Of a stretch of 64,000 nucleotides of DNA, positions 35,874 through 64,000 are shown one piece after another. Within the stretch, counting starts at the first letter, position 1; each line of letters begins with the position of its first letter. The stretch lies in the NCBI GenBank assembly GCA_017999615.1, contig JAGNLM010000001.1, forward strand, positions 614,739 to 678,738, read 5' to 3'. The notes under the pieces are model-generated. The model was not told the DNA's origin. It made no database searches and saw nothing but the letters and a program-made list of their open reading frames with translations. A program made the translations under genes and the position numbers. This DNA is from Gammaproteobacteria bacterium. GTDB taxonomy: Bacteria; Pseudomonadota; Gammaproteobacteria; JAABTG01.

Positions 35874-35881
35874 GCGGAGTC

Positions 35882-37308: not shown

Positions 37309-37467
37309 CCGTCCGTCTCGCGCGGGGCTTCCCCAGGGGAGCCCCCTCCGCCCCGGGGCGGAGTCGAGGGTCTTTCGAGGCGGGGCAGACAGCGTGTTGC
37401 CCCGCTTCGGTAGTTTGCATTGGCAGGCGCGCCCCGCGCCCAGCAGCGTCGGTATCCCATTGCCCCC

Positions 37468-44588: not shown

Positions 44589-44655
44589 GCCTGCGCCAGG
44601 CCTGCGCTGAGGCTGCGCCGGGCCTGCGGCAGGGCTGCGCCAGGCCTGCGCTGGG
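44583..44655. repeat. imperfect tandem repeat, about 6 copies of an 11-12 bp unit G(C/G)CTGCGC(C/T)(A/G)G
   Basis: gcctgcgccag gcctgcgctgag gctgcgccggg cctgcggcagg gctgcgccagg cctgcgctggg, between convergent gene ends. Confidence 0.5.
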
Positions 44656-44661
44656 CCGTGC

Positions 44662-45912: not shown

Positions 45913-45978
45913 GGCAGGCACCCTGGCGTCGACGGTTGGGGCACCGTAGGATCGCGCCCGTTTTCGGAGGGGTCGGCA

Positions 45979-46542
45979 ATGAAGGCAAGCGAGCTCAAGC
46001 GGGGCACGGTAGTCTCCATCGAGGGCCGCGCGTACATGGTACGCGAGGTGAGCGTCCAATCGCCCTCCTCGCGCAGTGGAAACACCCTGTACAAGGTCCA
46101 GTTCCGTGAAGTGGTGACCCGCCAGAAGCTCGAGCAGTCCTACCGGGGCGACGACGACCTGCAGGAGGTGTCGTTCGAGCGCCGGCCGGTGCAGCTCCTG
46201 TTCCGGGAAGTGGACTCCTGCACCTTCATGGACCTGGAGGACTACCAGCAGTACCCGATGGACCACGAGGCGATTGCCGCCGAACTGCCCTATCTCGTGG
46301 ACGGACTCACGGGCCTCTACGCCCTGGTCTCGGAAGGTACCGTGCTCGGGCTCGAGCTTCCGGCGACGGTCGAGCTGGAGATCGTGGACTGCGCCCCTTC
46401 GCTGAAGGGCGCTTCGGCGTCCGCTCGGACCAAGCCGGCCACTCTCTCCACGGGCCTCGTCGTCCAGGTGCCGGAGTACATCGCCCCAGGAGAGCGGGTG
46501 CGGGTGAACACGGTCACCGGCGAGTTCATGGCGCGGGCCTGA
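45979..46542 (+). CDS. yeiP: elongation factor P-like protein YeiP (EfpL)
   Basis: MKASELKRGTVV...EGR.Y.V.E......G.G......K.......L.......D, EF-P family KOW/OB domains, about 187 aa. Confidence 0.85.
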   Translation: MKASELKRGTVVSIEGRAYMVREVSVQSPSSRSGNTLYKVQFREVVTRQKLEQSYRGDDDLQEVSFERRPVQLLFREVDSCTFMDLEDYQQYPMDHEAIAAELPYLVDGLTGLYALVSEGTVLGLELPATVELEIVDCAPSLKGASASARTKPATLSTGLVVQVPEYIAPGERVRVNTVTGEFMARA

Positions 46543-46576
46543 GGCGCGGGCTCACGGCCAGCGCGGGGGGCGCGGG

Positions 46577-50360: not shown

Positions 50361-51161
50361 TCAACAGCCCTCGTTCACGATCAATCCCCCACCGCCGGCC
50401 GGTGCCGCGGGTGCCGCCGGGGCTGCGGGAGCCGTGGGCGCAGCGGGCGCGGCCGGTGCCGCGGGCGCAATCGGGGCAGCCGGGGCCGCCGGTGCGGCGG
50501 GAGTGGGCGCCTCGAGCGGTGCGACCGGCGGGGTGAAGGCGGCCGCCGGCGCAGAGGGCAGGGCCGCAGAGGCGGGTGGCGTCGGTGCCTGTGCGGAGGC
50601 GGCTGCCTCCGCGACCCTCACGAAGCCGCTCGTGCGTGCCTGGGCCCACTCGGCGGATTCGCGGCAGGCCGCCGCGAGCCGCTTGCCGTCGCCCGGATCG
50701 CGCGCCCCGAGGGCCGTTGCCTGACCCAGGTGGGCGAGCCAACCCCGGTAGCCGCCGTCGAGCGAATAGGCCTCGATGCCGGCGAGGCGCAGCAGCACCG
50801 CAGCCTGTGCCCCGGAAGAGGCCTCCTCCCCGTACACCACGACCACGCCCCCTTTGCCAAGGCGCTCGGCGCCCGCCCGGCTCACGGCCTCCGGGAGCGG
50901 CATGTGCTCCGCGCCCCGGATGGGCCCCGCGTCGAACTCGGAGTGGGTGCGCAGGTCCACGAGCCGCAGGGCGCGATTTCCCGCGGCGACCCAGTCCGAG
51001 AGCTGCTGCGCTGTCAGCCGGTACTCCCCCTGGGCCACGCCGGCCGCGACCGCGCCGAGAGAGGGGGCGGCGGAGGCCACCGGGGCCCGCTCACAGCCGG
51101 CCAGGGGGGTGCTCGCCAGGGCCGCGGCCAGGGCTGCGATGCGGAAGGCCTTTGCGTTCAT
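50361..51161 (-). CDS. rhodanese-fold lipoprotein lacking the catalytic Cys, with (PAA)n arm and C-terminal Cys
   Basis: Lipobox LAGCE; rhodanese fold (LRLVDLRTHSEFDAGPIRGAEH...VVVVYGEEASSGAQAA) in which the active-site Cys position is Gly; C-terminal PAAPAAPAAPIAPAAP...GGGGLIVNEGC. Start set at MNAKAF. Confidence 0.65.
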   Translation of the reverse strand: MNAKAFRIAALAAALASTPLAGCERAPVASAAPSLGAVAAGVAQGEYRLTAQQLSDWVAAGNRALRLVDLRTHSEFDAGPIRGAEHMPLPEAVSRAGAERLGKGGVVVVYGEEASSGAQAAVLLRLAGIEAYSLDGGYRGWLAHLGQATALGARDPGDGKRLAAACRESAEWAQARTSGFVRVAEAAASAQAPTPPASAALPSAPAAAFTPPVAPLEAPTPAAPAAPAAPIAPAAPAAPAAPTAPAAPAAPAAPAGGGGLIVNEGC

Positions 51162-51169
51162 GGTCTCGT

Positions 51170-52180
51170 TCACTCCCGAGTTGAGTGGAGCCGCTCCAGC
51201 CACCGCGCGTCGTGCTCCTGGGCGTACTGCTGGTAGGCGGTGCGCTGTCCGATCTCCACGGTGATCTCGCGCAACAGGTATCCGCCCACGAGCACGAGGA
51301 GCGGTGCGGCGAGGAACCAGAGGCAGATCCCCCTCAGCTCGAGCACCTCGAGCCCGAGCGGCACCAGGAGCCCCAGGCCCACGAACAGGACCCAGAAGGC
51401 CAGCGCCTGCTCGCCGAAGAACACCTCGCGGGCGGCCTCCACCTGGACCGCGCTGCCCGTCGCGAGGCTCACCAGCAGGAGGGCGACGAGCACGAGCTCG
51501 GCCAGGATGAGGCCGATGTCGATGCGGGTGAAGAGGGTCTTCTCCTCGTGGTGGAAGCGGGCCGCGAGGACGATGAGCGCCGCCGCGGTGGAGAGCCCCG
51601 ACACGAGGAAGAGCGGCCCGAGGACGCCGGAGTTCCAGAAGGGCCGGGCGTTGAAGGCGCTCAACAGGATCCCGGTGTAGACCCCGAGCGCGGCGCCGGA
51701 GACGAGGGTCGCCGCCGCGATGGGGCGGCGTGTCCGCTCGGCCGCATCGATCAGGGCGGACATGCCGGGCACCCGGGCCGCCTGGGCGGCGAGCGCGGGA
51801 TAGCCGGCCCGCAGGCTTGCGAGGATGAGGGCGATGCTGGCCGGGTAGACGAGGAGGAGGAACCAGGCGCCCCAGGACATGGGCGAGGTCGGCTCGAAGG
51901 TGGTGTAGAAGCGGTAGACGTAGAGCTTGTGGGAGAGGTCGAGGAACAGGAACAGCATCCCCGCGGAGAGCACCAGGGGGGCCAGCAGGATCGCCTGCCG
52001 GCCGGCGAAGGGCGACTGCTCCTCGCGCCGGGTGAGCACGATGACCGCGGCGAATACCATGAGCCCGGCGGTGAGCCCCCCGAGGTAGAGGTAGAGCGGG
52101 ATCTCCCAGCCCCAGACGGAGAGCACCGGGTCGATGCCGGGGTTGTGGCGCAGCGTGACGAGCAGCTCTTCGGTGGCCAT
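51170..52180 (-). CDS. NrfD/PsrC-family integral membrane quinol-interacting subunit
   Basis: Eight or more TM helices and the conserved W-x-x-P.YLYLGG N-terminal motif of PsrC/NrfD/DmsC-family anchors. Confidence 0.8.
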   Translation of the reverse strand: MATEELLVTLRHNPGIDPVLSVWGWEIPLYLYLGGLTAGLMVFAAVIVLTRREEQSPFAGRQAILLAPLVLSAGMLFLFLDLSHKLYVYRFYTTFEPTSPMSWGAWFLLLVYPASIALILASLRAGYPALAAQAARVPGMSALIDAAERTRRPIAAATLVSGAALGVYTGILLSAFNARPFWNSGVLGPLFLVSGLSTAAALIVLAARFHHEEKTLFTRIDIGLILAELVLVALLLVSLATGSAVQVEAAREVFFGEQALAFWVLFVGLGLLVPLGLEVLELRGICLWFLAAPLLVLVGGYLLREITVEIGQRTAYQQYAQEHDARWLERLHSTRE

Positions 52181-52723
52181 CTAGGTGAGGTAGTACACGT
52201 TGGGCTGGTTGCCGGTCTCCGGGAGCAAGACCTTCCAGGGGCGGGTCGCCAGCAGGCGGCTCACCGTGCTCGCGGGGTCGTCGAGCACGCCGAAGTGCAT
52301 GCAGTGCGTGGGGCAGGTCGCGACACACGCCGGGTCGAGTCCGCGCTCCACGCGGTGCGCGCAGAAGGTGCACTTGTCCACGTAGCCGTCGGGGCGCATC
52401 ACCAGGCGCGCGTCGTAGGGGCAGGCCGCGATGCAGGCCTTGCAGCCCGTGCACTTCTCGGGTGCCACCAGCACGATGTTGGTGTCGCCCCAGAAGTGGC
52501 TCGCGCCGGTGGGGCAGGTGTACACGCAGGTGGCATGCGAGCAGTGGTTGCAGCGCTCGCTGCGAAACTCTGTGCGGAGCTCGGGGTAACGGCCGTGGGT
52601 GGCCTCGACGACCCAGTCACGGTTCAGGCCGTCGGGGACGCGGTTCTCGGTCTTGCAGGCGACCACGCAGTCCCCGCAGCCGATGCACAGCCGGGTGTCG
52701 ATCACCATTGCGTAGCGGGTCAC
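52181..52723 (-). CDS. 4x[4Fe-4S] ferredoxin-type subunit (PsrB/DmsB-like)
   Basis: CIGCGDCVVACK, CNHCSHATCVYTCP, CTGCKACIAACP, CTFCAHRVERG...CVATCP clusters. Confidence 0.85.
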   Translation of the reverse strand: MTRYAMVIDTRLCIGCGDCVVACKTENRVPDGLNRDWVVEATHGRYPELRTEFRSERCNHCSHATCVYTCPTGASHFWGDTNIVLVAPEKCTGCKACIAACPYDARLVMRPDGYVDKCTFCAHRVERGLDPACVATCPTHCMHFGVLDDPASTVSRLLATRPWKVLLPETGNQPNVYYLT

Positions 52724-54966
52724 GCCGGCGTGTCCTCCGCCATCACGGTCACGAAATTCGCACGCATGCCCGTGCCGCCCATCAGCGGGTCGACCTTCAC
52801 CCGCGTCATCAGGCCCGTGTCGTCAGCCCCGGCCCCGCGGGCGAGGTTGAGCCCGGGCGCGGTGTGGCCGAAGCCGTGGGCGAGGTACACGCAGTCGGGG
52901 CGGATCCGCTCGGTGACGCGCACGCGCACCGGCAGGCTCACCGCGCCGTCCTGGTTCTTCAGGCGCACCCGTTGCCCGCTCGCGAGGCCGCGCGGACGGG
53001 CGGCGTCCGGGTGCACCCACAGGGTGTTCTCCGGCATCAACTGGAAGAGCAGCGGGTTGTTGCCGGTGCGCCCGAAGGTGTGGGCGGGCGCGCGGCCGTA
53101 GACGAGGCGCAGGAAGCCAGCGGGCGTCTCCTCGGGCGGGGTGTAGCGGGGCAGGGGGTCGAGCCCGGCCTTCGCGAGCTCCGTGGAATGGAGCTCGATC
53201 TTGCCCGTCGGTGTCCGGAAGCGCACCGCCTGTCCCGGCGTGAAGTACGCTGCGGTCTTGCGCGGGAAGCGCTTGAGCCCCACGCGCTGCATCTCCGCGA
53301 GGGAACTGCCGACCTGCTGCAACTGCCAGTCCAGCACCTCCGCGTAGTCTTGCCACGGGAACCAGGCGCCGAGCCCCAGGCGGTGGCCCAGCTCGCGCGC
53401 GATCCACCAGGCCGGCTTCGTCTCGTAGCGGGGGGCTAGCGCAGGCATGCGCAGGGCGAGGGAGGGCTCGCGCTCGGGGGCGTTGCGCAGCTCGTCGTAG
53501 CGCTCCAGGTAGGTGCACTCGGGCAGGACGACGTCCGCGTACCCCGTCACCTCGGCGGGCTGCACGTCCACGACGACGAAGAGGTCCAGTTTCTGCGAGG
53601 CCTCCTCGAGCTTGCCGGTGACCGCGGGGATGCTGAGTGGAAGGTTCGTGCCGTAGACGATCCAGCCCCGATAGTAAGGCCGCTCACCCACCGAGGCGTC
53701 GATGACGGCGTTGGTGACGTCGGCGTCGGCGAACGGGAACCCCCCGCGCCGGGCCTGGAGGTCCGCCGCCTTCGACTTGGGGTAGGGCGGCGTCGGGTAT
53801 TCCGGCAGGCTCACCTTCTCCGGCGCGTAGAAGCCGCCCGGCCGGCCCCAGGACCCGAGAAGCGCGTTCAGGATGGCGATGGCCCGGCTGCGCTGGGTGT
53901 CGTCCCCGTACCACGTGACGTGGCGGCCCGGGTGCACCAGGGTCGCGGGGGCGTGCCGCGCCATCTCGCGGGCGGTCTCGCGGATCACCTGCGGGTCGAT
54001 GCCCGTCTCGAGCCAGGCCCACTCGGGGGTGAACGGCTCGACGTGCCGGGTCAGCTCGGCGAGGCCGTGGCAGTAGCGCTGGACGTAGTCGCGGTCGTAG
54101 AGCCCCTCGCCCACGATGACGTGCGTCCAGGCGAGCAGGAGCGCCAGATCGGTGCCCGGGCGGATCGGCAGCCAGTACCGGGACTTCGCGGCGGCGACCG
54201 AGAACCTCGGGTCGACCGTGATGACGCTGGCACCGGCCTCGATCGCCCCGATGAAGTCCTGCACCTGCCCGTTGTGCAGGTTCTCCCCGAGGTGCGAGCC
54301 GATCAGCACGATGCAGCGCGAGCGTGCCATGTCGGTGCGCTCGGGGGAGCCGAGCAGCTCCCCGAAGGTCAGCCGGAAGCCGACGTCGCGCGGACCCCGA
54401 CACTGGGCGAAGGAGGGCGCGGCGTAGGTGTCCGCGCCATAGGCCCGCAGCAGGTGTCGGAAGAAGGCCCCGCCGGAGCCGTGGCTGAAGAGCGCGACCC
54501 GCTCGGGGCCGTGCTCCCTCGCGATCCGCTGCAGGCGCTCGGCGATGTAACCGAGCGCTTCGTCCCAGGAGACGGGCCGGAAGCGCTGCTGCCCGGGCTT
54601 CCCTTCGCGCAGCAGCGGCTGGCGCAGCCGGCTCGGGTCGTCCCAAGCCCCCGGTCCGGCGGTGCCCCGGGTACACAAGCGCCCGCCCGAGTGCGGGTCG
54701 TCCGGGTGGCCGCTGACCTTCCAGGGCCGCCCGTCGTGCACGTGGGCGTAGCCCGCGCACCTCCAGAAGCACACCTCGCAGACGGTCGGGGTGACCACCG
54801 CCTCCGAGTCCCGGGGCACGCGGGGCTCGACCCCGCAGCCGGGGAGCGCCCCCGTGGCGGCACCGAGTCCGGCGGCGCCGGATATCCGGATGAAGTCACG
54901 CCGTTTCAAGTTCTTCGGGCTCTCGAAAAAGGTCGGAGATCGATGGGGTGCCCCGCAAGGGGACAC
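52720..54966 (-). CDS. Tat-exported molybdopterin (Mo-bisPGD) oxidoreductase catalytic subunit, Psr/Phs/Sre-like
   Basis: Twin-arginine signal KRRDFIRISGAAGLGAATG; N-terminal FeS-binding CEVCFWRCAGY....C...; 748 aa, the size of polysulfide/thiosulfate reductase A subunits. Confidence 0.8.
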   Translation of the reverse strand: MSPCGAPHRSPTFFESPKNLKRRDFIRISGAAGLGAATGALPGCGVEPRVPRDSEAVVTPTVCEVCFWRCAGYAHVHDGRPWKVSGHPDDPHSGGRLCTRGTAGPGAWDDPSRLRQPLLREGKPGQQRFRPVSWDEALGYIAERLQRIAREHGPERVALFSHGSGGAFFRHLLRAYGADTYAAPSFAQCRGPRDVGFRLTFGELLGSPERTDMARSRCIVLIGSHLGENLHNGQVQDFIGAIEAGASVITVDPRFSVAAAKSRYWLPIRPGTDLALLLAWTHVIVGEGLYDRDYVQRYCHGLAELTRHVEPFTPEWAWLETGIDPQVIRETAREMARHAPATLVHPGRHVTWYGDDTQRSRAIAILNALLGSWGRPGGFYAPEKVSLPEYPTPPYPKSKAADLQARRGGFPFADADVTNAVIDASVGERPYYRGWIVYGTNLPLSIPAVTGKLEEASQKLDLFVVVDVQPAEVTGYADVVLPECTYLERYDELRNAPEREPSLALRMPALAPRYETKPAWWIARELGHRLGLGAWFPWQDYAEVLDWQLQQVGSSLAEMQRVGLKRFPRKTAAYFTPGQAVRFRTPTGKIELHSTELAKAGLDPLPRYTPPEETPAGFLRLVYGRAPAHTFGRTGNNPLLFQLMPENTLWVHPDAARPRGLASGQRVRLKNQDGAVSLPVRVRVTERIRPDCVYLAHGFGHTAPGLNLARGAGADDTGLMTRVKVDPLMGGTGMRANFVTVMAEDTPA

Positions 54967-55006
54967 CCCAAGTGTTGCACATCTTCGCCAGTCCGTCGCT
55001 CGCCCC

Positions 55007-56308
55007 TCACTCGAAGACGTAGCTGCCGTCGCCCTTGATGGTGAGCGCGTCGTTCAGGAAGCGCACCTGGTCGTAGCCGAGCTTCTTCAGGAACTGGTAC
55101 GCCATCTCGGAGCGGGATCCGTTGGTGCAATAGGCGACGATGGGACGGTCCTTCGGCAGCGACGAGGGATCCGCCTGCAGCTTGTCGAGGGGCAGGTGCG
55201 TCGAGCCCTTCAGCACACCCATCGCGGCCTCCTTGGCGTCGCGCACGTCCAGCAGCAGCGCGTTGCCGGGCGCGGCGACCACTTTCGCGAACTCCTCGGT
55301 CGACAGCGAGCCTTCCTTCGGCTTCTTCGTGTAGGCGATCTGGGTCGGGGCTTCGCCGGTGACCGTCGGCCGGCCCTCCTTCACCCACGCCTGGTAGCCG
55401 CCCCCGAGGATCGTGGCGTTCTTGTAGCGGTACTTCTTCAGCTCCGCGAACGCGGTGAGGACGTCCTCGCCGTTGTCCGTGTTGCCATAGACCACGATGG
55501 GCGCCCCCATGTCGGCCACGCCCGGGAGCCTCGCCGGTGCCTTCTCGGCGATGAATTTCTGGGTCATCGCGGGGAACGCCGCGGACTCGATCGACACCGC
55601 CCCCGGCAGGTGCCCTGCGGCCACCTCCGCCTTCGGGCGCACGTCGATGACGACGTGATGCGGGTCGAGGTGGGCCGCGACCCACTCGGGTACCGAGGTC
55701 ACCGGCTTGCCGGCCTTCTTCCACGCGGGAATGCCGGCCTGGAAGCCCTTCAGGTTGGTGTGGCCGGCCTTGGTGGCGATCTCGATGGAGCTGCCCGTGT
55801 AGGGACAGGTGGGACCACCACAATAGAAGATGACCATCGTGCCCTTGTCGGTGGGCAGCTTGTCCAGGTTGTTCGGCAGGTCCTTCCAGAAGATCTGGAT
55901 GGCGCCCGGGATGTGCCCTTCGAGGTACGGTCCCTTCGGGCGGGCGTCGACTAGCAGGAACGGGTCCTTGCCGGCGCGGATCCGCTCGAGCTCCTCCATG
56001 CTGATCTCGGCCCCGGGCGGAAGGGCGAACACCACCTTGGTGATCCGGGTGGCCGGCTGACCGGGCGTGTGCTCGACCTTGATCAGGTCCGGGGTGCCGA
56101 GCTCCTTGATGCCCGCCGCGTTGACGAACTCGGTCTGCGGACCGAAGAGCACGACCTGGGACTTTCCGCTCACCTCGACCTGGATGGTGTTGGCCTTGTT
56201 CGAGATGTCTTCGATGCGGCCCTCCACGGTGTCGGCCCGGGCGGTCGGGACCAGGGCGAGCAGGGCGGCGAGCAGGGCGGAGAGGGGCGTCGGGCGCGGG
56301 ATCGACAT
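55007..56308 (-). CDS. periplasmic multi-rhodanese protein (three rhodanese domains, the middle one Cys-less)
   Basis: Signal peptide; rhodanese 1 active loop FYCGGPTCPY, rhodanese 2 with YGNTDNGED replacing the Cys loop, rhodanese 3 YCTNGSRSEMAY; unknown N-terminal domain of about 110 aa. Confidence 0.75.
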   Translation of the reverse strand: MSIPRPTPLSALLAALLALVPTARADTVEGRIEDISNKANTIQVEVSGKSQVVLFGPQTEFVNAAGIKELGTPDLIKVEHTPGQPATRITKVVFALPPGAEISMEELERIRAGKDPFLLVDARPKGPYLEGHIPGAIQIFWKDLPNNLDKLPTDKGTMVIFYCGGPTCPYTGSSIEIATKAGHTNLKGFQAGIPAWKKAGKPVTSVPEWVAAHLDPHHVVIDVRPKAEVAAGHLPGAVSIESAAFPAMTQKFIAEKAPARLPGVADMGAPIVVYGNTDNGEDVLTAFAELKKYRYKNATILGGGYQAWVKEGRPTVTGEAPTQIAYTKKPKEGSLSTEEFAKVVAAPGNALLLDVRDAKEAAMGVLKGSTHLPLDKLQADPSSLPKDRPIVAYCTNGSRSEMAYQFLKKLGYDQVRFLNDALTIKGDGSYVFE

Positions 56309-56463
56309 GAGCGGATACCTCGCAGGTGGCTGAGTTCCCGGTGGGGCACGCTGCGCGGGGCAACACCACCAACCCGGGGGGCCCGAAGGCCCCCCTGAGT
56401 ATAGGCCCTGACGACGACCGTCCGCGATGAGTATCTGGTTGTTTTAACTAAGATTAATATCGT

Positions 56464-57768
56464 TCACTCGAGGACGTAGCTGCCATCGCCCTTGATCACC
56501 AGTGACTCGTTCAGGAAGCGGACCTTCTCGAAGCCGTTCTTCTTCAGGAAGTCGTACGCCATCTCCGAGCGAATGCCGTTGCTGCAGTAGGTGATGACGG
56601 GCTTGTCCTTCGCCAGGACGGACGGGTCGGCCTGAAGGCGGTCGATGGGGATGTGCAGCGCTCCCGGCAATTTGCCGCCTGCCACCTCCTTGTCCTCGCG
56701 CACGTCCACCAGGATCGTGTCGCCCCGGTTCTCGACCAGCTTCGCGAACTCGTCCCGGGACACCGCGCCGGGCTTCAGCTTCTTCACGTAGCTGATCTGC
56801 GTCGTGGCCGCCCCCGCCTCGATCGGCAGGCCCTGCTTCACCCATTCGGGGTAACCCCCCTTCAGGATGGCGGCGTTCTTGTACTGGTACTTCTTCAGCT
56901 CCCCGTAGGCCGTGAGCACGTCCTGCCCGTTCTCGGTGTCCCCGTACACGACGATGGGAGCCGCCATGTCGGCGACACCCGGCAACCGGGCCACCTGCTT
57001 CTCGGCGACGAACTTCTGGGTCATCGCAGGGAACTCCGCAGCCTCCATCGCCACGGCCCCTTTGACATGACCTTTGGCCGATTCGGCCTTCGCGCGCACG
57101 TCGATCACCACGGTGTTCGGGCCGAGACCGGCGGCGACCCACGAGGGGCTGGCGACGACCGGCTTGCCGGCCTTCTTCCAGGCGGGAATTCCGGCCTGGA
57201 AACCCTTCAGGTTCGTGTGGCCGGCCTTGGCCGCGATCTCGATGGACTGCCCCGTGTACGGGCAGGTCGGGCCGCCGCAGTAGAAGATGAGCATCACCCC
57301 CTTGTCGGCCGGCAGCTCGTTCAGGCGGTTCGGCAAGTCCTTCGGGAAGATGTTGATGCTGCCCGGCAGGTGCCCCGTGACATATTGCTTCTCGGGACGG
57401 GCGTCCACGAGGACGAAGGGTTCCTTGCCCGCGCGAATCGCCTCGAGCTCCTGCAGGCTCACCTCCGCTCCGGGTGGCAGGCCGAAGACCACCTTGGTGA
57501 TCCTGGTCGCGGGCTTGCCGGGGGCGTACTCGACCTCGATCAGGTCCGGCGAGCCGAGGTCCTTCACGCTGGCCGCGTTCACGTACTGCGTCTCCGGTCC
57601 GAAGAGAACCGTGACCGGCGGCTGGCCTTCGGGGGTCAGCTTGATGGTGGACCCCTTGTTGGAGATGTCGTCGATGCGGCCCTTGACGGTGTCCGCACCA
57701 GCGCCGGCCGACAGCGCGAGGCCGCCGGTCAAGACGAGGACGAGGCAGGTGATTCGCCTGTGGGACAT
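56464..57768 (-). CDS. paralog of the multi-rhodanese protein (tandem duplicate, about 70% identical by eye)
   Basis: Same architecture: FYCGGPTCPY, YGDTENGQD, YCSNGIRSEMAY; collinear with the downstream copy. Confidence 0.75.
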   Translation of the reverse strand: MSHRRITCLVLVLTGGLALSAGAGADTVKGRIDDISNKGSTIKLTPEGQPPVTVLFGPETQYVNAASVKDLGSPDLIEVEYAPGKPATRITKVVFGLPPGAEVSLQELEAIRAGKEPFVLVDARPEKQYVTGHLPGSINIFPKDLPNRLNELPADKGVMLIFYCGGPTCPYTGQSIEIAAKAGHTNLKGFQAGIPAWKKAGKPVVASPSWVAAGLGPNTVVIDVRAKAESAKGHVKGAVAMEAAEFPAMTQKFVAEKQVARLPGVADMAAPIVVYGDTENGQDVLTAYGELKKYQYKNAAILKGGYPEWVKQGLPIEAGAATTQISYVKKLKPGAVSRDEFAKLVENRGDTILVDVREDKEVAGGKLPGALHIPIDRLQADPSVLAKDKPVITYCSNGIRSEMAYDFLKKNGFEKVRFLNESLVIKGDGSYVLE

Positions 57769-57858
57769 GCTCCTATCCTCCTCTGGTTCTGCGTTTGCCT
57801 ATGGGATATTGCCTCCCTAACTATGACCCAAGTGTATTGCCTATGTAAATTTCGTTCG

Positions 57859-59835
57859 CTAGGGGAGGAGGCAGTTTGCGGTGGGGTCGGTCGGCGTGGG
57901 TGGGCAGACGAAGGCGAGCACCCCGCCGTCAGGTCGGACCTCGATGCGCAGGTCCTGCAGGCGAGAGAGCACGTCCATCCCGAGCACCGGCTTCCAGTGG
58001 CTGTCCGCGGAGGCACAGGCGAGCGCCCGCACGCCGGGCAACACGCAGGAACCGATGCGCAGTCCTTCGAGGAGGTAGTGCCTTGCCTCGGCGCCACCAC
58101 CGTGGATGAGCTCCACGTTCACTTCCCCGAGGGGCAGCGCCCGGTTGCGCCCGCACATGCGCTGCAGGTGCGGGTGGGGGAGCACGGTGACGGCCGAGCC
58201 GGTGTCGAGCAGCAACGAGAGGTCCGGGTCCTGCACGCAGCCCACGAGCCGGACCGGGACGTGCAGCAGTCCCTCGCGCAGGGTGAGGGGCACGCGCTCG
58301 GGACCGTTGCGCTCGGCAGGGGCCTCGCCGGGCGGGGGAGCGGCCGACGGAGCGGACGGGGGAGCGGACGGGGGAGCGGACGGGGTAGCGGGCGGGGGAG
58401 CGGGCGGCGTGCCGTGGCAGCTCCCGCAGGCCCGCGCCGGCCCCACCGTGTGCGGGCTGATGGGCACGAGCTCGCGCCACGACCGCACCGCCGCGGGCCC
58501 GCCAGCGGGAGGCGGGAACTCCGCGCTCATGGCCATGCCGGGGACGAAGGGTGCGATGCGCCCGTCGGGTCGCTCCCCGAGGTTCGGCACGACGGGCTGC
58601 ATCTTCCCGCGGTCCGCGAGCCAGCGCCCGGGGGTCAGCCGGCGCTCGTGATGGTCCCACTGCTCGGCGCCCGGCTCGAAGCGCACGTGGCAGCCCTCGC
58701 ACTGGGGCGCCCACTGGCTGTGGCAGGCCTCGCAGGTGAGGCGAGCGTGCTCGCGCGCGTATGGGTGGGCGGGCATCCGCGCCTTTCCGCCCTCGCGGTG
58801 GCAGTCCTCGCAGACGGGACCGGCCTTCCCCGCCAGGCCCATCACCTGGGTCCCGCGGTGACAGTCGACGCAGCGCATTCCCGCCCGGTGGTGGGCGTCG
58901 CCCGGGACGCGCTCCACCAGTCGGCCGTCGGGGAGCCGCCCCAGGCGTGACCGGTCCACCCGTGCGAGCGCGGACTCGTCCACCTCGGCGAGGCCGGAGT
59001 AGGCGAGGGCCATGCGCGTGGCGCGGGAGTGACAGCCGAAGCAGCGCTCGTCCCGCACCCGGGCGGAGAGCTCGGCGTGCGCACCCGCGGGGTAGTCGTT
59101 CAGGTGGCAGGCGAGGCACCCGCCCCCGCGGTCGCGCACCGGGTCGAGCGCGTGCCGGGCCTTGGGGTGCGCGATGTGGCAACTCGCGCAGAGCTTGCGA
59201 AAGAGCGAGTCGGCCGGTGACTGGCCGAGGCTGGCGACGCCCGCGGCCGCCGCCGGGGCGGACTTCCGATCGCCTGCGGGGGCCTCGCCAAAGGCCTGCC
59301 GGTTGCCCGTCACCATCCCGCGCAGGGTCGCCATGGGACTCGCGCGCACACCGGCCAGCTCTGCCGGGTGACAGCGCCCGCAGGTCCGCTCCGCGTTCTC
59401 CAGGTTCCCCGGGAAGGCGACGAGCCCGGCGTGCGCGAGCTCCCGTGTCGCGGCCGCGGCGTCGCCGGCGTGGCAGGCGGTGCAGTCTCCCGCAGCGAAG
59501 GCATGTCCCGCCGGGTGGCCCTGGTCGCGGACGGGGTGGCAGCCGAGGCATCCGGGGACGGCGGCTGCGGCCACCGCTTCGAGGCCGAGAAGGGCCGTGA
59601 GGGGCAGGGCGGTGAGGGCCAGGGGCGTCAGCACGAGGGGCGCCAGGGTGAGGAGCGCGAGGGCCAGGAGCGGCGCGCGCACGCTCCCGCCGGCGCGGCG
59701 GTCCGACCGGCCCGGGCTCCCCGCAAGCGGGGCCACGAATGGAGCCGCGCTTCGCCTCCCCGCAGATTTGCGCCAGATCAAGTGGCCTGCATCTTGGTCA
59801 AGGACCTGGTGGACGCACTCCGGTTCGTCACTCAT
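57859..59835 (-). CDS. undecaheme c-type cytochrome fused to a C-terminal retropepsin-like (clan AA) aspartic protease domain
   Basis: 11 CxxCH motifs; Pro/Ser/Ala linker PPAPPPATPSAPPSAPPSAPSAAPPP; C-terminal domain with LLLDTGSAV and VLGMDVL retropepsin signatures; hydrophobic low-complexity N-terminus. Alternative in-frame GTG start at 59682. Confidence 0.65.
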   Translation of the reverse strand: MSDEPECVHQVLDQDAGHLIWRKSAGRRSAAPFVAPLAGSPGRSDRRAGGSVRAPLLALALLTLAPLVLTPLALTALPLTALLGLEAVAAAAVPGCLGCHPVRDQGHPAGHAFAAGDCTACHAGDAAAATRELAHAGLVAFPGNLENAERTCGRCHPAELAGVRASPMATLRGMVTGNRQAFGEAPAGDRKSAPAAAAGVASLGQSPADSLFRKLCASCHIAHPKARHALDPVRDRGGGCLACHLNDYPAGAHAELSARVRDERCFGCHSRATRMALAYSGLAEVDESALARVDRSRLGRLPDGRLVERVPGDAHHRAGMRCVDCHRGTQVMGLAGKAGPVCEDCHREGGKARMPAHPYAREHARLTCEACHSQWAPQCEGCHVRFEPGAEQWDHHERRLTPGRWLADRGKMQPVVPNLGERPDGRIAPFVPGMAMSAEFPPPAGGPAAVRSWRELVPISPHTVGPARACGSCHGTPPAPPPATPSAPPSAPPSAPSAAPPPGEAPAERNGPERVPLTLREGLLHVPVRLVGCVQDPDLSLLLDTGSAVTVLPHPHLQRMCGRNRALPLGEVNVELIHGGGAEARHYLLEGLRIGSCVLPGVRALACASADSHWKPVLGMDVLSRLQDLRIEVRPDGGVLAFVCPPTPTDPTANCLLP

Positions 59836-59881
59836 GATTCCCTCACCGTCTTTGGGGTGATTTTCTTCAACAATAACCTGG

Positions 59882-61195
59882 ATGAATCGGATGGAGGTCG
59901 TCGTGCGCAGCCGCTCACTCGTCCTGACCCTCGCTCTCGTGCTGATCGGAGGTTTCCCGGCGCATTCGGCGTACGCCGCCCGTACGACGGCGGACGACGA
60001 GGCCGAAGAGCCGTTCCAGGGAAGGACCGTTCAGTATTATCGCCCGGAAGCTTGCAAGAAGTGCCACGAGGAAATCTACAACCAGTGGAAGTCCTCGATG
60101 CACGCGAAGAGCACGGCGCTGAAGGACCCCATCCACGAGGCGATGTACCAGATGGAGGTCGGCTCGCCGACGGAGGAGGGCGTCAAGCACAAGAAGTCTC
60201 AGACCTATCCGGTCTGCCTGCAGTGCCACGCGCCGGTCGCGGCGATGGAGAAGAAGACCAAGCTTGACGAGAAAGAGGCCTACAGCAACGGCGTCGGGTG
60301 CGTGGTGTGCCACTCCTTCGCCCACTTCAAGGGCATCAAGAAGCCGGACGGCAAGTACCAGCTCGGCCAGCTGGCCTATCAGGTCGACACCGAGCAGCTC
60401 TACGGGCCCTCCGGCATCTCCTACACCAAGAAGCGGGTGCCCAAAGGGTCTACGTGGCCGATTCCGGTCAACCACCCCCAGCCCATCAAGGGCAGCAAGG
60501 CGTCGCTCTTCAAGAGCAACGACCTCTGCATGGGATGCCACGACCAGCGCAACAACCCGAAGGAAGTGCCCCTCTGCATGACCGGCCCCGAGTACGAGAA
60601 GGGCAAGGCCTTCATCAACTGCCAGGCCTGCCACATGGCGCCGACCGAGGTGGTGAACAAGGACGGCGAGAAGGTCAAGGTGTTCGACCACACCATGGCC
60701 GGTGGGCACCACGACAAGATGATCACCCAGGGTGTCGCGTTGAGCATGGACGTGAAGCGCGAGGGGGACAATTTCAAGGTCGACATCACGCTGCGTAACC
60801 GCCTGCCGCACGCCTACCCGACCGGCGCGCCGTTCCGCAACGCCATCGTGCGGGTGGCCGCGTACGACAAGGACGGGAAGCTGCTGTGGCAGAACTACGA
60901 GAAGCACCCCTCCAAGGACGACCCCAAGGCCTTCCTCCTCCTCGCCCTCGGCAAGGACGGCAAGCCGGTGATGCCACCCGAGGCCACCGAGATCCTGAAC
61001 GACTCGCGCCTGCAGCCGGACGAGACCCGCGCGCTCGAGTACAGCTTCACCGCCGCGGGCGTCGGCATCGTGCGCACCGAGCTGCTCTACCACCTGCTGA
61101 CGCCGCCGGTGCTCGAGATGTTCGGGGACAAGCTGCCGGAAGAAGTGAAGAAGGCAAGGGTCGCGGCCTCGGCCGAGGAACGCTTCGAAAGCTGA
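59882..61195 (+). CDS. periplasmic pentaheme c-type cytochrome (NrfA/ONR/MccA-superfamily-like)
   Basis: Signal peptide ...AHSAYA; five CxxCH motifs (CKKCH, CLQCH, CVVCH, CMGCH, CQACH); N-terminal CKKCHEEIYNQWKSSMH and CQACHMAP resemble motifs of multiheme reductases. Confidence 0.7.
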   Translation: MNRMEVVVRSRSLVLTLALVLIGGFPAHSAYAARTTADDEAEEPFQGRTVQYYRPEACKKCHEEIYNQWKSSMHAKSTALKDPIHEAMYQMEVGSPTEEGVKHKKSQTYPVCLQCHAPVAAMEKKTKLDEKEAYSNGVGCVVCHSFAHFKGIKKPDGKYQLGQLAYQVDTEQLYGPSGISYTKKRVPKGSTWPIPVNHPQPIKGSKASLFKSNDLCMGCHDQRNNPKEVPLCMTGPEYEKGKAFINCQACHMAPTEVVNKDGEKVKVFDHTMAGGHHDKMITQGVALSMDVKREGDNFKVDITLRNRLPHAYPTGAPFRNAIVRVAAYDKDGKLLWQNYEKHPSKDDPKAFLLLALGKDGKPVMPPEATEILNDSRLQPDETRALEYSFTAAGVGIVRTELLYHLLTPPVLEMFGDKLPEEVKKARVAASAEERFES

Positions 61196-61305
61196 GGACC
61201 CCGGCGGCGAAACGCGGTTCCCGGGGCGGGCGGGGCGCCAGCACGCCCGCCCCGTGAGAGGCCGCAGCGGTCGGTCGAGCCCCACGGTATCGGTGGTCAG
61301 GAGGA

Positions 61306-62028
61306 TTGACGATGGTCTCGCTTGGAACATGGCTTCGGTCGCGCGCCCTGTGGAGCGGAGCCTGCCTGGTGGCCCTGCTGCCCCTCGCAGCGGTGGGTGA
61401 CGGGGCGAGCGACGAGGTGAGCGACAAGCCCGCGGTCGCCCGACCGGCGCCCCGCACCCTGGAGACGGTCCACCCGGAGGCGAACCCCGCCAAGACAGTG
61501 GACGGCCAGGCGCCGTTCGAGGAAGCCCCGCTGTTCCGGGTCGTCACCCGGAAGAAGGACTCGGACATGCACCCCTGCGGGGATTGCCACGACGAGACGC
61601 TGTCGGACTTCAAGCCGCGGGACCTGCAGCGGCCCCACGACGACTTCAAGCTCGAGCACGGGCTGCACGGCCGCGGCGAGTTCTGGTGCTTCACCTGCCA
61701 TCGCGTGAAGGGCACGGGCGGCCTGAAGACGATGGAGAGCGAGCGGCTCGGGTTCGACGACGCCTACGTCATCTGTTCCCAGTGCCACGCCCAGGAAGCC
61801 CGGGACTGGACCCACGGCGCCCACGGCAAGCGCGTGGGGGGCTGGGAGGGAGACCGCACGCTGCTCAGTTGCACCGTCTGCCACTTCCAGCACCGCCCGA
61901 AGATGGACCCGCGCAAGGCCGAGGAGCCTCCGCCGGTGCGCCGGGGCCTCCCTCGCCAGGACACCAATCCCCACGAGCCGTTGCCGGTGTGGGAGCGCCA
62001 CGGGGCCCAGGGCCCGGTGACCAAGTGA
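61306..62028 (+). CDS. periplasmic tetraheme c-type cytochrome
   Basis: Signal peptide; four CxxCH motifs (CGDCH, CFTCH, CSQCH, CTVCH); about 240 aa. Confidence 0.65.
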   Translation: MTMVSLGTWLRSRALWSGACLVALLPLAAVGDGASDEVSDKPAVARPAPRTLETVHPEANPAKTVDGQAPFEEAPLFRVVTRKKDSDMHPCGDCHDETLSDFKPRDLQRPHDDFKLEHGLHGRGEFWCFTCHRVKGTGGLKTMESERLGFDDAYVICSQCHAQEARDWTHGAHGKRVGGWEGDRTLLSCTVCHFQHRPKMDPRKAEEPPPVRRGLPRQDTNPHEPLPVWERHGAQGPVTK

Positions 62029-62082
62029 CCGGGTAACTCGGCGGCACCCAAACATCCGGATCGAACACGTACACGGACAACG

Positions 62083-63018
62083 TTGGCCATGAGCGACCAC
62101 GACCAGCACGACGACGCACCCGACCGCGCCCGCCGGCGCTTCCTGCAGCGGGTCGGTACCGTGGCAGCCGCAGCCGCGGCGGCCCCGGCGAGCGAGGGGG
62201 CCTGGGGCGGCAAGACCCTCGAGGACGCCCTGGGGGAGTTCTTCCAGGACAACTACCGGCGCATGACGCCGGAAGAGGTGAAGGAGGCGATCGGGCGCAT
62301 CGAGCGCCGGGCGAAGCGCCTGTACGGCGTGGACATCACCGTCGGCAACGAGCCGCCGCTGCCCGGGGTCGTCTTCGGGTACGCGATCAACGTCTCCAAG
62401 TGCCGCGGATACCGGGACTGCGTTCGCGCCTGCGGCGAGGAGAACAACCAGAGCCTCGACATGCAGTACATCCGGGTGCTGCAGCTCGACCAGGGCAGCC
62501 TGAACTTCGAGCAGGCCGAGCACTACTACCCGGGCGACCAGGTCCCGGTCGAGGGCAAGCACTACGTCCCGGTGCAGTGCCAGCAGTGCGACAACCCCCC
62601 GTGCGTGAAGGCCTGCCCGGTCGGCGCGACCTGGAAGGAGCCCGACGGCGTCGTGGTGGTCGACTACGACTGGTGCATCGGTTGCCGGTACTGCATGGCG
62701 GCCTGCCCTTACCAGGCCCGCGTGTTCAACTGGGGCGCGCCGGACCTGCCGGCCGAGCGCATCAACCCCAAGACCCACTACCTCGGCAACCGCCCGCGGC
62801 AGGCCGGATCGGTCGAGAAGTGCCACTTCTGCCTGCAGCGCACGCGCGTCGGCAAGCTGCCCGCCTGTCAGGAGGCCTGCCCGACCGGGGCACGGGTGTT
62901 CGGGAACCTGCTCGATCCGGAGAGCGAGATCCGCTACGTGCTCGAGCACAAGGTCGTCTTCCGGCTGAAGGAGGACGTGGGGACCGAGCCGAAATTCTGG
63001 TACTACCGGGACGTCTGA
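62083..63018 (+). CDS. Tat-exported 4x[4Fe-4S] ferredoxin-type protein (NrfC/HybA-like)
   Basis: Twin-arginine RRRFLQRVGTVAAAAAAA; Cys clusters CRGYRDCVRACGEEN, CQQCDNPPCVKACP, CIGCRYCMAACP, CHFCLQRTRVGKLPACQEACP. Confidence 0.8.
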   Translation: MAMSDHDQHDDAPDRARRRFLQRVGTVAAAAAAAPASEGAWGGKTLEDALGEFFQDNYRRMTPEEVKEAIGRIERRAKRLYGVDITVGNEPPLPGVVFGYAINVSKCRGYRDCVRACGEENNQSLDMQYIRVLQLDQGSLNFEQAEHYYPGDQVPVEGKHYVPVQCQQCDNPPCVKACPVGATWKEPDGVVVVDYDWCIGCRYCMAACPYQARVFNWGAPDLPAERINPKTHYLGNRPRQAGSVEKCHFCLQRTRVGKLPACQEACPTGARVFGNLLDPESEIRYVLEHKVVFRLKEDVGTEPKFWYYRDV

Positions 63019-63031
63019 GGAGGGGTGAGGC

Positions 63032-64000
63032 GTGGCCCTGTTTCGATTCCTTTCCAATGGAGTGCGGCATGCCTTCCGGGGCTCGCCGACCTACTGGGCG
63101 TGGCTGGGATTCCTGGTGCTGGTGATCGCGAACGGGCTGTGGGCCTATTCGCACCAGCTGTCCGAGGGGCTCATCGCCACGAACATGAGCAGCCAGGTCT
63201 CCTGGGGCTTCTACATCGCGAACTTCACCTACCTGGTGGGGGTCGCCGCGGCGGCCGTGCTGCTCGTCATTCCCGCCTACATCTTCCATCGCCAGGACGT
63301 GAAGGACGTGGTGCTGCTCGGCGACACCATGGCGGTCGCCGCGGTGATCATGGCGATCCTGTTCGTGGTGGTCGATCTGGGGCGGCCGGACCGCATCTGG
63401 CATCTGCTGCCGGGGGTTGGCATCTTCAACTTCCCGACCTCGATGCTGGCCTGGGACGTGGTGGTGCTCTCGGGCTACCTGCTGCTGAACCTCGGGATCT
63501 CGTTCTACATCGTCTACAGCCACTACCGCGGCCGCCAGCCGGTGCTGCGCTATTACTTCCCCTTCGTGCTGCTGGCGATGTTCTGGGCGATCTCCATCCA
63601 CACCGTGACGGCCTTCCTGTTCTCCGCGAACAGCGGCCGGCCGTTCTGGTCGAACCCGCTGCTCGCGCCGCGGTTCATCGCCTCTGCGTTCGCCTCGGGA
63701 CCCGCGCTCAGCATCATCGCCCTCACCATCGTGCGCAAGACGACGCGCTACCCCGTGCAGCAGAGCGTGATCGACATGCTCTCGGTGGTGATGACGGTGG
63801 CGCTCCAGATCACGCTCTTCTTCGTGGGCGCGGAGCTCTTCACCGAGTTCTACAACGAGGGGCACCACGCGGCGTCCGCGCGCTACCTGTTCCTCGGCCT
63901 GCACGGGCACGGCGTGCTGGTGCCCTGGATCTGGACGGGCATCGGGATGCTCGCGGTGGCGGTCTTCATCCTGATGGTCCACCCGCTTCGCCGGCAGCCG
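63032..64000 (+). CDS. NrfD-family integral membrane protein (partial; continues past the window end)
   Basis: Frame not listed in the ORF track because no stop occurs in the window. GAGGAGGGG ribosome-binding site then a GTG at 63032; the hand translation VALFRFLSNGVRHAFRGSPTYWAWLGFLVLV... shows many TM helices typical of NrfD/PsrC. Confidence 0.6.
   Translation, partial: MALFRFLSNGVRHAFRGSPTYWAWLGFLVLVIANGLWAYSHQLSEGLIATNMSSQVSWGFYIANFTYLVGVAAAAVLLVIPAYIFHRQDVKDVVLLGDTMAVAAVIMAILFVVVDLGRPDRIWHLLPGVGIFNFPTSMLAWDVVVLSGYLLLNLGISFYIVYSHYRGRQPVLRYYFPFVLLAMFWAISIHTVTAFLFSANSGRPFWSNPLLAPRFIASAFASGPALSIIALTIVRKTTRYPVQQSVIDMLSVVMTVALQITLFFVGAELFTEFYNEGHHAASARYLFLGLHGHGVLVPWIWTGIGMLAVAVFILMVHPLRRQP

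Follow-up and report, generated by a model that had tools for sequence, protein, structure and literature searches.

Association of a polysulfide reductase (Psr) with a sulfurtransferase is classical, as with Sud, the periplasmic sulfurtransferase serving the Psr of Wolinella succinogenes. PsrABC of Wolinella and Thermus consists of a catalytic subunit A, exported by twin-arginine translocation (Tat) and carrying molybdenum-bis(pyranopterin guanosine dinucleotide) (Mo-bisPGD) and the iron-sulfur (FeS) cluster FS0, of a four-cluster subunit B, and of an NrfD-type subunit C. The same layout is found in an island of eleven genes at the end of a 64,000-nt stretch of gammaproteobacterial DNA (GenBank assembly GCA_017999615.1, contig JAGNLM010000001.1, positions 614,739 to 678,738; hereafter, the window), together with a periplasmic rhodanese-fold partner, as in Wolinella. 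Unlike in Thermus and Wolinella, the partners are here a three-rhodanese protein with an OB-fold (Rhd3) and a tethered protein with a terminal cysteine (the carrier), a second quinone module and multihaem cytochromes are linked to the enzyme, and the hosts are mainly sulfur oxidisers and not sulfur respirers. The gammaproteobacterial cluster to which the island belongs is conserved, and plausibly forms a quinone-linked periplasmic relay for polysulfide or sulfane (zero-valent) sulfur. This reading does not prejudge the direction of electron flow, and its probability is put at about 0.6.

The cluster may also be compared with extHIJKLMNOPQS of Geobacter sulfurreducens (PMC13510729, PMC5877670), which similarly encodes a rhodanese of ~49 kDa (ExtH), a pentahaem cytochrome with an Ig-like domain, ExtM/N cytochromes and a quinol-oxidising module. 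It differs from Ext because the ExtI porin and ExtJ are absent, the pentahaem protein has alanine and not selenocysteine (Sec), a DsrOP-like pair replaces the Rieske and cytochrome b subunits, and a Mo enzyme is present. In 2026 the pentahaem selenoprotein MccSep (ExtKL) was demonstrated to be the enzyme that reduces polysulfide when Geobacter respires elemental sulfur (S0). Haem 2 of MccSep is ligated by His122 and Cys239, Sec325 is essential, the U325A variant loses most activity, and according to the authors Sec or Cys at the U325 position defines the MccSep family (PMC13510729).

The low-potential cytochrome c552 of Thermochromatium tepidum has been studied in isolation. In PMC11976967, Chen et al. 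(2019) are cited as suggesting a role in sulfur metabolism for this protein, and c552-type pentahaems are likened to nanowire cytochromes. Here c552 lies in a fixed context, with a tetrahaem cytochrome, the DsrOP-like pair, Rhd3 and Psr. A 'DsrOhPh-tetrahaem' locus was described in 2026 in cable bacteria and Desulfobulbales with no function assigned, its closest relatives being reported from gamma- and betaproteobacterial sulfur oxidisers (PMC13047784). As here, tetrahaem, DsrO-like and DsrP-like proteins are encoded apart from dsrMKJ; in contrast to that locus, the island has no TMH1 gene, and a link to Psr, rhodanese and c552 genes is not reported in the accessible part of the source. As far as can be told, the DsrOP-like/tetrahaem module gains a new functional context from its fixed linkage, seen in more than 20 genomes, to c552, Rhd3 and PsrABC.

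Judged from its sequence, each protein of the island can be placed in, or likened to, a known family (Psr, rhodanese, c552/PHC, ExtM, DsrO/DsrP). What appear to be undescribed are the conserved eleven-gene unit, the family of terminal-cysteine carriers, and the tie that the unit makes among Psr-like enzymes of sulfur oxidisers, T. tepidum c552 and the DsrOP-homologue/tetrahaem complex, all three lacking a function in the literature. An earlier reading of the window from its letters alone (the sequence-only reading) had failed to map the unit onto one described operon, and no description of it was retrieved from the searchable literature. Publications dealing with A. vinosum grown on pyrite, with Thiocapsa, or with the metagenomes of soda lakes and Mono Lake mention nothing of the cluster beyond generic psrA/phsA calls, and a Thioalkalivibrio paper on a 'candidate gene' in arsenite stress concerns SoeABC, a different locus. 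The movement of insoluble zero-valent sulfur among environment, globules and enzymes is a long-standing gap in the sulfur cycle.

Conservation and components of the Psr-rhodanese core

Using the Rhd3 alignment as bait, a species-level scan (one genome per species) returned 80 loci, to which the island proteins were mapped by tblastn; the linkage counts that follow are limited to gammaproteobacterial loci, and to those whose contig is long enough for a judgement. PsrA goes with Rhd3 in 53 of 55 loci, PsrB in 47 of 49, PsrC in 45 of 46 and the carrier in 38 of 44; clustering of flanking open reading frames (ORFs) adds six carrier copies (at least 44 loci). The cytochrome/NrfD module, made of c552, tetrahaem, DsrO-like and DsrP-like proteins, adjoins at roughly every second locus (22-24 of 44-53), the tetrahaem gene being next to the genes of the FeS protein and of the second NrfD-type subunit in 23 of 47. 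The undecahaem gene adjoins the cluster, on either side, in 26/38. The commonest order, on one strand, is c552, tetrahaem, FeS, NrfD, Rhd3, PsrA, PsrB, PsrC, lipoprotein. The arrangement is far beyond chance, since this gene set is met again in dozens of genomes. The window version is rearranged: the cytochrome module is divergently oriented and Rhd3 is present in two copies. Tandem duplication of Rhd3 occurs in 2 of 59 gammaproteobacterial loci, one of which is probably a split match, and in a few metagenome relatives. The closest genome, that of an uncultured Ectothiorhodospiraceae bacterium (L003), encodes proteins 55-86% identical and has the local order in common with the window.

Hosts belong to Chromatiales, Ectothiorhodospiraceae, Thioalkalivibrio, Wenzhouxiangella, Competibacteraceae, Sedimenticolaceae and Arenicellales. 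The dozens of species-level genomes with the cluster come from groups of environmental importance, among which Chromatiales, Thioalkalivibrio, Competibacteraceae and Sedimenticolaceae, and the hypotheses are directly testable because at least one host, Wenzhouxiangella limi (strain C33, locus L048), is cultured. The housekeeping gene fkpA abuts the island and was considered as an MccB-like partner; the adjacency is unique to this species, and fkpA is for this reason not counted in the system. Directly beside the cluster, 8-12 related loci have genes for a UbiA-family prenyltransferase (~290 aa) and for a protein similar to rubrerythrin (~187 aa). Both genes are absent from the window; the two proteins may serve to make a quinone, or a prenylated cofactor, for dedicated use. 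One contig (L009, JABDRC010000269.1) with the full cluster of gammaproteobacterial type, whose proteins have 51-83% identity to those of the window, bears the bin label 'Halobacteria archaeon'. The label is most likely a binning error, and the contig not an archaeal copy.

PsrA aligns end to end with T. thermophilus PsrA (2VPW-2VPZ; 684.7 bits, E 1.5e-204), other PDB families scoring far less (acetylene hydratase 183 bits, formate dehydrogenases at most 162, ArrA 137). Among NCBIfam models, PhsA scores 472.5, DmsA 234, Fdh 207, ArrA 125 and TtrA 40. The name PhsA was rejected, 472.5 bits being under the cut-off of 694 set for that equivalog (NF012032). The protein carries a Tat motif, RRDFI, and the FS0 pattern CEVCFWRC...C (CxxCxxxC...C). 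Conservation extends to the residues that align with Thermus Cys173, His145 and Arg332, and SFAQCRGPRD aligns with Cys173, reported by Jormakka et al. (2008) to be the Mo ligand. By these comparisons, the catalytic subunit is a full-length homologue of Thermus PsrA in the Psr/Phs clade, and not a formate dehydrogenase. The sequence-only reading was to be given up if the Mo subunit grouped with formate dehydrogenases; by score it is closest to Thermus PsrA (685 bits, against at most 183 for the others). Its view of a periplasmic unit for sulfur-compound redox chemistry and sulfur trafficking, centred on a Psr/Phs-type Mo enzyme with rhodanese partners, is supported. Because the PhsA score is under the cut-off and the literature advises caution, PsrA is filed in the Psr/Phs clade without a named substrate.

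PsrB has four groups of cysteines (CIGCGDCVVAC, CNHCSHATCVYTCP, CTGCKACIAAC and CTFC...CVATCP) and lacks a signal peptide; presumably it is exported together with PsrA. PsrC has nine hydrophobic segments. The Tat signal of PsrA (54830-54909, minus strand) is followed by ...GALPGC/GVEP, which includes LPGC, a lipobox-like motif of atypical kind. From this motif, PsrA might be a Tat-exported lipoprotein. The claim that every product of the island has a signal peptide, a lipobox or a Tat motif must be relaxed: PsrB has none of them, PsrC and the second NrfD-type subunit are polytopic, and the undecahaem cytochrome is apparently signal-anchored, since a ~55-residue N-terminal extension is conserved in the closest relative. 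The conclusion drawn from that claim, a periplasm-facing system, stands despite these exceptions.

The active-site loops of Rhd3 do not vary, and its catalytic cysteines are invariant in domains 1 and 3 (C163 and C394), as expected for catalytic rhodaneses, and domain 2 lacks an active-site cysteine. In Rhd3b the corresponding loops are YCGGPTCP in domain 1 and CTNGSRS in domain 3, the loop of domain 2 being without cysteine. Of the two copies, Rhd3a is the one that has its orthologue in the only Rhd3 of L003 (86%). Proteins identical to those of the island are found in a metagenome-assembled genome (MAG; MBP7711409-12) and in hundreds of metagenome assemblies, where the triple-rhodanese protein is annotated as 'hypothetical protein'. 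Distant homologues of Rhd3 (30-36% identity) occur in Desulfurivibrionaceae, Desulfobulbaceae, Geobacteraceae and Nitrospirae. The type is thus met beside several kinds of periplasmic sulfur-compound oxidoreductase, and therefore fits a Sud-like delivery of substrate.

The neighbourhoods of these distant homologues are varied. In a MAG of Nitrospirae (L064, 9848-16464), genes for a sigma-54 regulator and for an octahaem cytochrome of the Otr family lie between those of two Rhd3-type proteins, so that the OB-fold triple-rhodanese architecture has here another sulfur-compound oxidoreductase as its partner. In a Geobacteraceae MAG (L065, 4724-21039) the order is Otr-family octahaem cytochrome, a 715-aa protein without family match, Rhd3-like, PsrA-like, NrfD-like, FeS protein, chemoreceptor, a true ExtM (997 bits) and ExtN/O; a Psr/rhodanese unit is here physically joined to ext cytochrome genes. 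The neighbourhood in Desulfurivibrionaceae (L072) is uninformative, holding regulators and housekeeping genes only.

The carrier is the most unusual component. Past the lipobox are found a rhodanese domain devoid of the catalytic cysteine, an internal conserved Cys166, and a Pro/Ala-rich linker of ~75 residues, predicted to be disordered, which leads to ...LIVNEGC, the chain ending at Cys266. Pfam and NCBIfam searches recognize the rhodanese domain and no other family. In the AlphaFold2 model, the rhodanese domain is modelled at a predicted local distance difference test score of 92-97, two helices bear the internal cysteine, and residues 191-266 are disordered. All orthologues (~44 loci) have cysteine as the C-terminal residue, as in ...LLIGEGC, ...LLIKAEC and ...LIVDEGC, and the catalytic rhodanese cysteine is missing from all of the ~38 orthologues checked. 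All members are anchored by either a lipobox or an uncleaved transmembrane (TM) helix, and most have an internal QAVxC[YF]FEGDY motif. The linker is of low complexity throughout, usually with DPLGLGLGLG motifs, and Pro/Ala-rich in the lineage of the window. In an exhaustive profile search, the terminal cysteine was found in 80 of 104 representatives of single-domain size and in none of 45 multi-rhodanese matches; terminal tetrapeptides are GEGC, KEGC, EEGC and others. A few variants end in ...ILEGGCG or ...IGNPCGG, near the GGCGG arm of SoxY. The family, which has no name, comprises at least 80 clusters at 50% identity, and no such terminal-cysteine rhodanese protein was found in the searchable literature. 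The same locus is available on a 317-kb metagenome contig (L001), which gives the full-length last gene and the flank of the island. The carrier of the window (266 aa) and that of L001 (15148-15891; 247 aa) are 89% identical; most other island proteins are 100% identical in the two, PsrB and PsrC being 98% and 96% identical.

The carrier shares with the arms of SoxYZ and DsrC a conserved cysteine at or beside the C-terminus of a flexible peptide, and with SoxYZ also the periplasmic location and a genetic setting among sulfur redox enzymes, one of them a cytochrome that may have a His/Cys haem. It differs from SoxY in fold, a rhodanese without cysteine, in its lipid or TM anchor, in the ~75-residue tether, and because the cysteine is usually the last residue. 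The protein does not belong to SoxY, given the rhodanese fold and an xEGC tail in place of the SoxY fold and GGCGG, and the likeness is one of functional analogy. By this analogy, we infer that the tethered protein may be a covalent sulfur carrier working in the manner of the SoxY swinging arm.

Cytochromes and the DsrOP-like module

The pentahaem cytochrome matches T. tepidum c552 (5ZE8) with E 1.6e-101 and 344 bits over query residues 47-425 (379 aligned). The two proteins share five haem motifs and the PLC and PTGAPFRN motifs, and on this comparison the pentahaem protein is a member of the low-potential c552 family. The match to MccSep (9WT8/9WT9) reaches only E ~1e-3. Among 20 cluster-linked homologues of c552, the five CxxCH are always present, and neither the non-haem Cys232 nor the HAYPTGAPFRN loop, which includes Ala316, varies. 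A profile alignment pairs Cys232 with MccSep Cys239, the posterior confidence of this pairing being low, and Ala316 with Sec325; alanine is invariant at the latter position in 20/20 homologues and is found in 5ZE8 as well. A His/Cys haem, of the kind typical for cytochromes that handle sulfur, may be retained in c552. The pentahaem protein has the five CxxCH and the Ig-like C-terminal domain of MccSep-type proteins. Yet, it lies outside MccSep, because alanine occupies the position that must be Sec or Cys, and it scores 78.9 against a cut-off of 250 with the NCBIfam ExtKL model.

The undecahaem cytochrome scores 134.6 bits with NCBIfam ExtM, against a cut-off of 800, the likeness extending over the N-terminal half, and a PDB sequence search gives no relative of known structure. 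The scores below cut-off for ExtM and ExtKL, and the absence of porin, Rieske and cytochrome b ORFs from the island, led us to discard assignment to the Geobacter Ext cluster. The ~55-aa N-terminal stretch, conserved in L003, appears to be cytoplasmic and to precede a signal anchor. About 28 orthologues all have exactly 11 CxxCH, and none has a protease. In the window, a retropepsin-like domain (57862-58338, minus strand; Pfam gag-asp_proteas 27.8 bits, DTGS) is joined to the cytochrome via a Pro/Ser linker, and two metagenome assemblies of independent origin (ENA, JGI) agree exactly in the fused sequence. In L003 a free-standing ORF (4654-5616, plus strand), between the undecahaem gene and Rhd3, encodes the protease as a small secreted protein. 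The fusion of an 11-haem cytochrome to a protease, as noticed by the sequence-only reading, is real; it is not a conserved feature, and comparison of the sequences indicates a recent, lineage-specific event, outside the conserved system.

The DsrP-like subunit has eleven hydrophobic segments, and its full-length copy in L001 scores 404.2 bits with NCBIfam DsrP, over the equivalog cut-off of 350. The FeS protein scores 192.7 bits with DsrO, marginally under the cut-off of 200, and has three canonical groups of cysteines and a variant one. The 120 closest homologues listed for the tetrahaem cytochrome are all 'hypothetical protein' from Gammaproteobacteria, with no named protein of cable bacteria among them. 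The genes that mark the 'DsrOhPh-tetrahaem' locus, dsrO and dsrP homologues and a tetrahaem cytochrome away from dsrMKJ, are hence all present. A DsrMKJOP complex was considered and rejected: DsrM, DsrK and the trihaem DsrJ are found neither in the island nor in the L001 flank. The cytochrome modules had also been described as Nrf-, Sir- or Mcc-like, which is not borne out, as no CxxCK and no octahaem catalytic cytochrome are found, and NrfC and NrfD models score far under their cut-offs (164 against 378, and 101 against 348). Nothing supports the nitrogen oxyanions once listed among possible substrates.

Proposed relay, electron direction and competing explanations

In the model proposed, Rhd3 would capture sulfane sulfur and deliver it as persulfide via its two cysteine-bearing loops, in a Sud-like manner. 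The membrane-tethered carrier, whose rhodanese domain is dead, would hold sulfur on the C-terminal cysteine of its ~75-residue disordered arm, and the two proteins would present sulfane sulfur, as polysulfide or S0, to PsrA. PsrB and PsrC would carry electrons between PsrA and quinone. The quinone pool would be joined to c552 and to the membrane-anchored undecahaem cytochrome by the tetrahaem, DsrO-like and DsrP-like proteins, and one of the two cytochromes may itself act on carrier-bound sulfur. According to a bolder version, the carrier is the counterpart of SoxY or DsrC, PsrA and c552 build or remove chains on its terminal cysteine, possibly bridging Cys166, and the arm supplies in trans the second nucleophile, since c552 has alanine instead of Sec. 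This version, drawn by analogy, is speculative and rather doubtful. If it is right, sulfur-oxidising Gammaproteobacteria would have a carrier-protein-based pathway for S0/polysulfide redox, and functions would be assigned to T. tepidum c552 and to the DsrOhPh-tetrahaem complex.

The sequence-only reading spoke of reduction, which was an assumption: sequence does not decide the direction of electrons, and hosts are mostly sulfur oxidisers. If the relay is accepted, oxidative or bidirectional use is slightly preferred to reductive mobilisation of S0 or polysulfide. In the oxidative case, sulfide would be oxidised onto carrier-bound or free polysulfide, and electrons would pass to quinone and then, for example, to Nap, the periplasmic nitrate reductase encoded in the same window. 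Reduction of polysulfide by ubiquinol would be strongly uphill at standard potentials, in a host that is presumed to use ubiquinone. The oxidative lean derives from this, from the prevalence of sulfur oxidisers among hosts, from the nearby Nap, and from the absence in c552 of the Sec needed for reduction by MccSep.

Several points weigh against the relay, or against its oxidative use. All characterised relatives, Thermus and Wolinella Psr and MccSep, are reductases, and the thermodynamic argument assumes a ubiquinone-based host. One of the hosts, Wenzhouxiangella, is not known as a sulfur lithotroph. PsrA falls short of the PhsA equivalog cut-off, the equivalence of Cys232 to Cys239 comes from a low-confidence profile alignment, and the sulfur-carrier role of the terminal cysteine is an argument by analogy. 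About half of the loci have no cytochrome/DsrOP-like module nearby, and the modules may therefore work independently. The literature searched contains no experiment on any member of the cluster. In PMC13047784 it is explicitly stated that substrates cannot be read from sequence in the Psr/Phs clade, and in PMC12949373 a Psr homologue is reported to contribute to tetrathionate respiration in Shewanella ANA-3.

The most serious alternative is that the cluster encodes a strictly respiratory polysulfide/thiosulfate reductase. PsrC and the DsrP-like subunit would oxidise quinol, electrons would go to PsrA and the cytochromes, the rhodaneses would feed sulfur, and the host would use the system, when oxygen is absent, to respire S0 from outside or from its own stores. 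Sulfur-storing bacteria such as Chromatium and Beggiatoa are able to reduce their S0 reserves when light or oxygen is lacking, and Psr has been proposed for this role. PhsA is moreover the best NCBIfam model for PsrA, and the closest characterised homologues all act as reductases, Thermus PsrABC as well as MccSep, the ext cluster being induced by S0 (PMC13510729). Yet, the cluster resides mainly in aerobic or denitrifying sulfur oxidisers, c552 has an invariant alanine where MccSep needs Sec, no hydrogenase or formate dehydrogenase genes that could provide a donor are linked to the cluster, and the step from ubiquinol to polysulfide would be strongly uphill, by standard potentials and for an assumed quinone. 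The alternative is possible, if rather unlikely.

A different question is whether the island is a recently acquired, accessory piece of foreign DNA, as the sequence-only reading had surmised from a content thought to differ strongly from the rest of the window. Occurrence of the cluster is patchy, its flanks vary from genome to genome, fkpA adjoins it in this species only, and gene order is rearranged here, with the divergent cytochrome module and the duplicated Rhd3, all of which would suit a recent arrival. Composition does not: the tetranucleotide correlation of the island with the rest of the window is 0.97-0.98, equal to that of other segments, GC is within the range of the window, and the codon adaptation index is 0.70-0.89, against a mean of 0.74 in housekeeping genes. 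No tRNA flanks the island, no integrase or transposase was found among the major ORFs scanned, and the closest relative has the same local order. Composition and codon usage argue against a recent foreign origin, the cluster looking well adapted to its host, and no compositional distinctness is seen. Foreign origin is thus improbable.

Reduction of selenite, tellurite or another chalcogen or metalloid, with rhodaneses handling selenium in the manner of Geobacter Ext or of Srr from Bacillus selenitireducens, is even less probable. SrrA is a Psr-clade enzyme encoded alongside rhodanese-domain proteins, and the best-scoring named NCBIfam families for three proteins of the island are ExtM, ExtKL and rhodanese (seleno)protein models. 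These Ext scores are however far under the cut-offs, no protein of the island contains Sec, the MccSep Sec position being alanine, and ExtI, ExtJ, Rieske and cytochrome b subunits are absent. In addition, the distribution tracks sulfur-cycling taxa. MccSep supports selenite-dependent oxidation of methyl viologen, yet the role of ExtKL was re-assigned in 2026 to S0/polysulfide respiration (PMC13510729).

That the cytochrome/DsrOP-like module merely neighbours an unrelated Psr operon finds some comfort in its adjoining only about half of the Psr/Rhd3 loci, in the comparison of c552-type pentahaems with nanowire cytochromes (PMC11976967), and in PMC13047784, where such a role is considered for the cable-bacteria complex and some hosts are noted to be without sulfur metabolism; coincidence is nonetheless hard to accept, since in more than 20 species-level genomes the module, its gene order kept, directly precedes Rhd3-PsrABC and is read from the same strand, and as c552 has a cysteine that aligns, with low confidence, with a haem ligand of sulfur chemistry and no outer-membrane porin or cytochrome partner is found in the cluster or among recurrent flanking genes, this is the least credible of the explanations weighed.

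Gene inventory and surroundings of the island

The region 50361-64000 was annotated by third-position GC (GC3), followed by Pfam, NCBIfam and a scripted motif check. The window is ~69% G+C, and long ORFs are for this reason mostly artefacts. GC3 yields a single coherent gene set across 50.3-64.0 kb, and the inventory of genes made by the sequence-only reading was confirmed item by item. The island spans 50361 to ~64288, 288 nt being past the window end, and comprises seven genes on the minus strand and four divergent genes on the plus strand (Table 1). In L001 the DsrP-like gene is followed (5-1741) by genes for a PEP-CTERM protein, similar to the flocculation protein PepA, and for a Wza-type polysaccharide exporter, and the island is hence taken to end after the DsrP-like gene. 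These two genes mark the start of an exopolysaccharide/floc locus. A 247-aa protein encoded beyond the window was considered as an island member and rejected, as it is a PEP-CTERM protein of the exopolysaccharide locus and is not conserved with the cluster. An Rfam search of 49-64 kb gave no match at E ≤ 0.1, and a scan of the island for promoters and terminators found nothing above shuffle expectation.

Table 1. Genes of the island, other respiratory genes of the window, and recurrent neighbours of the cluster in related loci
Feature	Position	Strand	Size and diagnostic features
Rhodanese lipoprotein (RhdLipo, the carrier)	50361-51161	-	266 aa; lipobox LAGC; Pfam Rhodanese 50.7 bits
PsrC, NrfD-family integral membrane quinone/quinol-interacting subunit	51170-52180	-	336 aa; Pfam NrfD 146.7 bits
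PsrB, four-cluster [4Fe-4S] electron-transfer subunit	52181-52723	-	180 aa; Fer4_11 and related Pfam
PsrA, Tat-exported Mo-bisPGD catalytic subunit	52720-54909	-	729 aa; TTG start; Molybdopterin, Molydop_binding
Rhd3b, secreted, OB-fold and three rhodanese domains	55007-56308	-	433 aa
Rhd3a, paralogue of Rhd3b	56464-57768	-	434 aa; 67% identical to Rhd3b
Undecahaem cytochrome fused to aspartic-protease domain (clan AA)	57859-59835	-	11 CxxCH; DTGS
Pentahaem cytochrome, T. tepidum low-potential c552 family	59882-61195	+	5 CxxCH; MccSep/ExtKL-like fold
Periplasmic tetrahaem cytochrome c	61312-62028	+	238 aa; 4 CxxCH; Pfam matches weak
Tat-exported DsrO-like FeS protein	62089-63018	+	309 aa; Tat motif RRRFL
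DsrP-like NrfD-family membrane subunit	63029-64000, cut by window end	+	full 419 aa in L001, ends ~64288
napD (periplasmic nitrate reductase cluster)	31801-32145
napA	32142-34937
napG	35049-35873
napH	35870-36850
napB, dihaem	~36840-37308
moeA	37420-38694
Rubrerythrin-like/UbiA-family neighbours	L032 15792-17315; L046 8273-9731; L061 2139-3591; L055 9226-9786; others

The remainder of the window includes tig, clpP, clpX, lon, ppiD, fabI, sodB, an RpoS-like sigma factor and others of this kind, and is not of housekeeping nature throughout, as napDAGHB and moeA are present as well. The host hence respires nitrate through a quinol dehydrogenase of NapGH type. The window thus holds two periplasmic quinol-dependent Mo enzymes, Nap lying 13 kb from the island.

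At 44611-46551 two ORFs of more than 630 aa overlap on opposite strands, and both have gene-like GC3, a pair which illustrates how misleading long ORFs are at such G+C. Of the plus-strand ORF, the 3' end only is recognisable, as the EF-P-like YeiP (187 aa in L001). A Ser/Thr protein kinase fused to a cyclic-nucleotide-binding domain, unrelated to the cluster, is encoded at 16923-18353 on the minus strand, and is adjoined by the gene of a LysM/SLT lytic transglycosylase (18313-20472).

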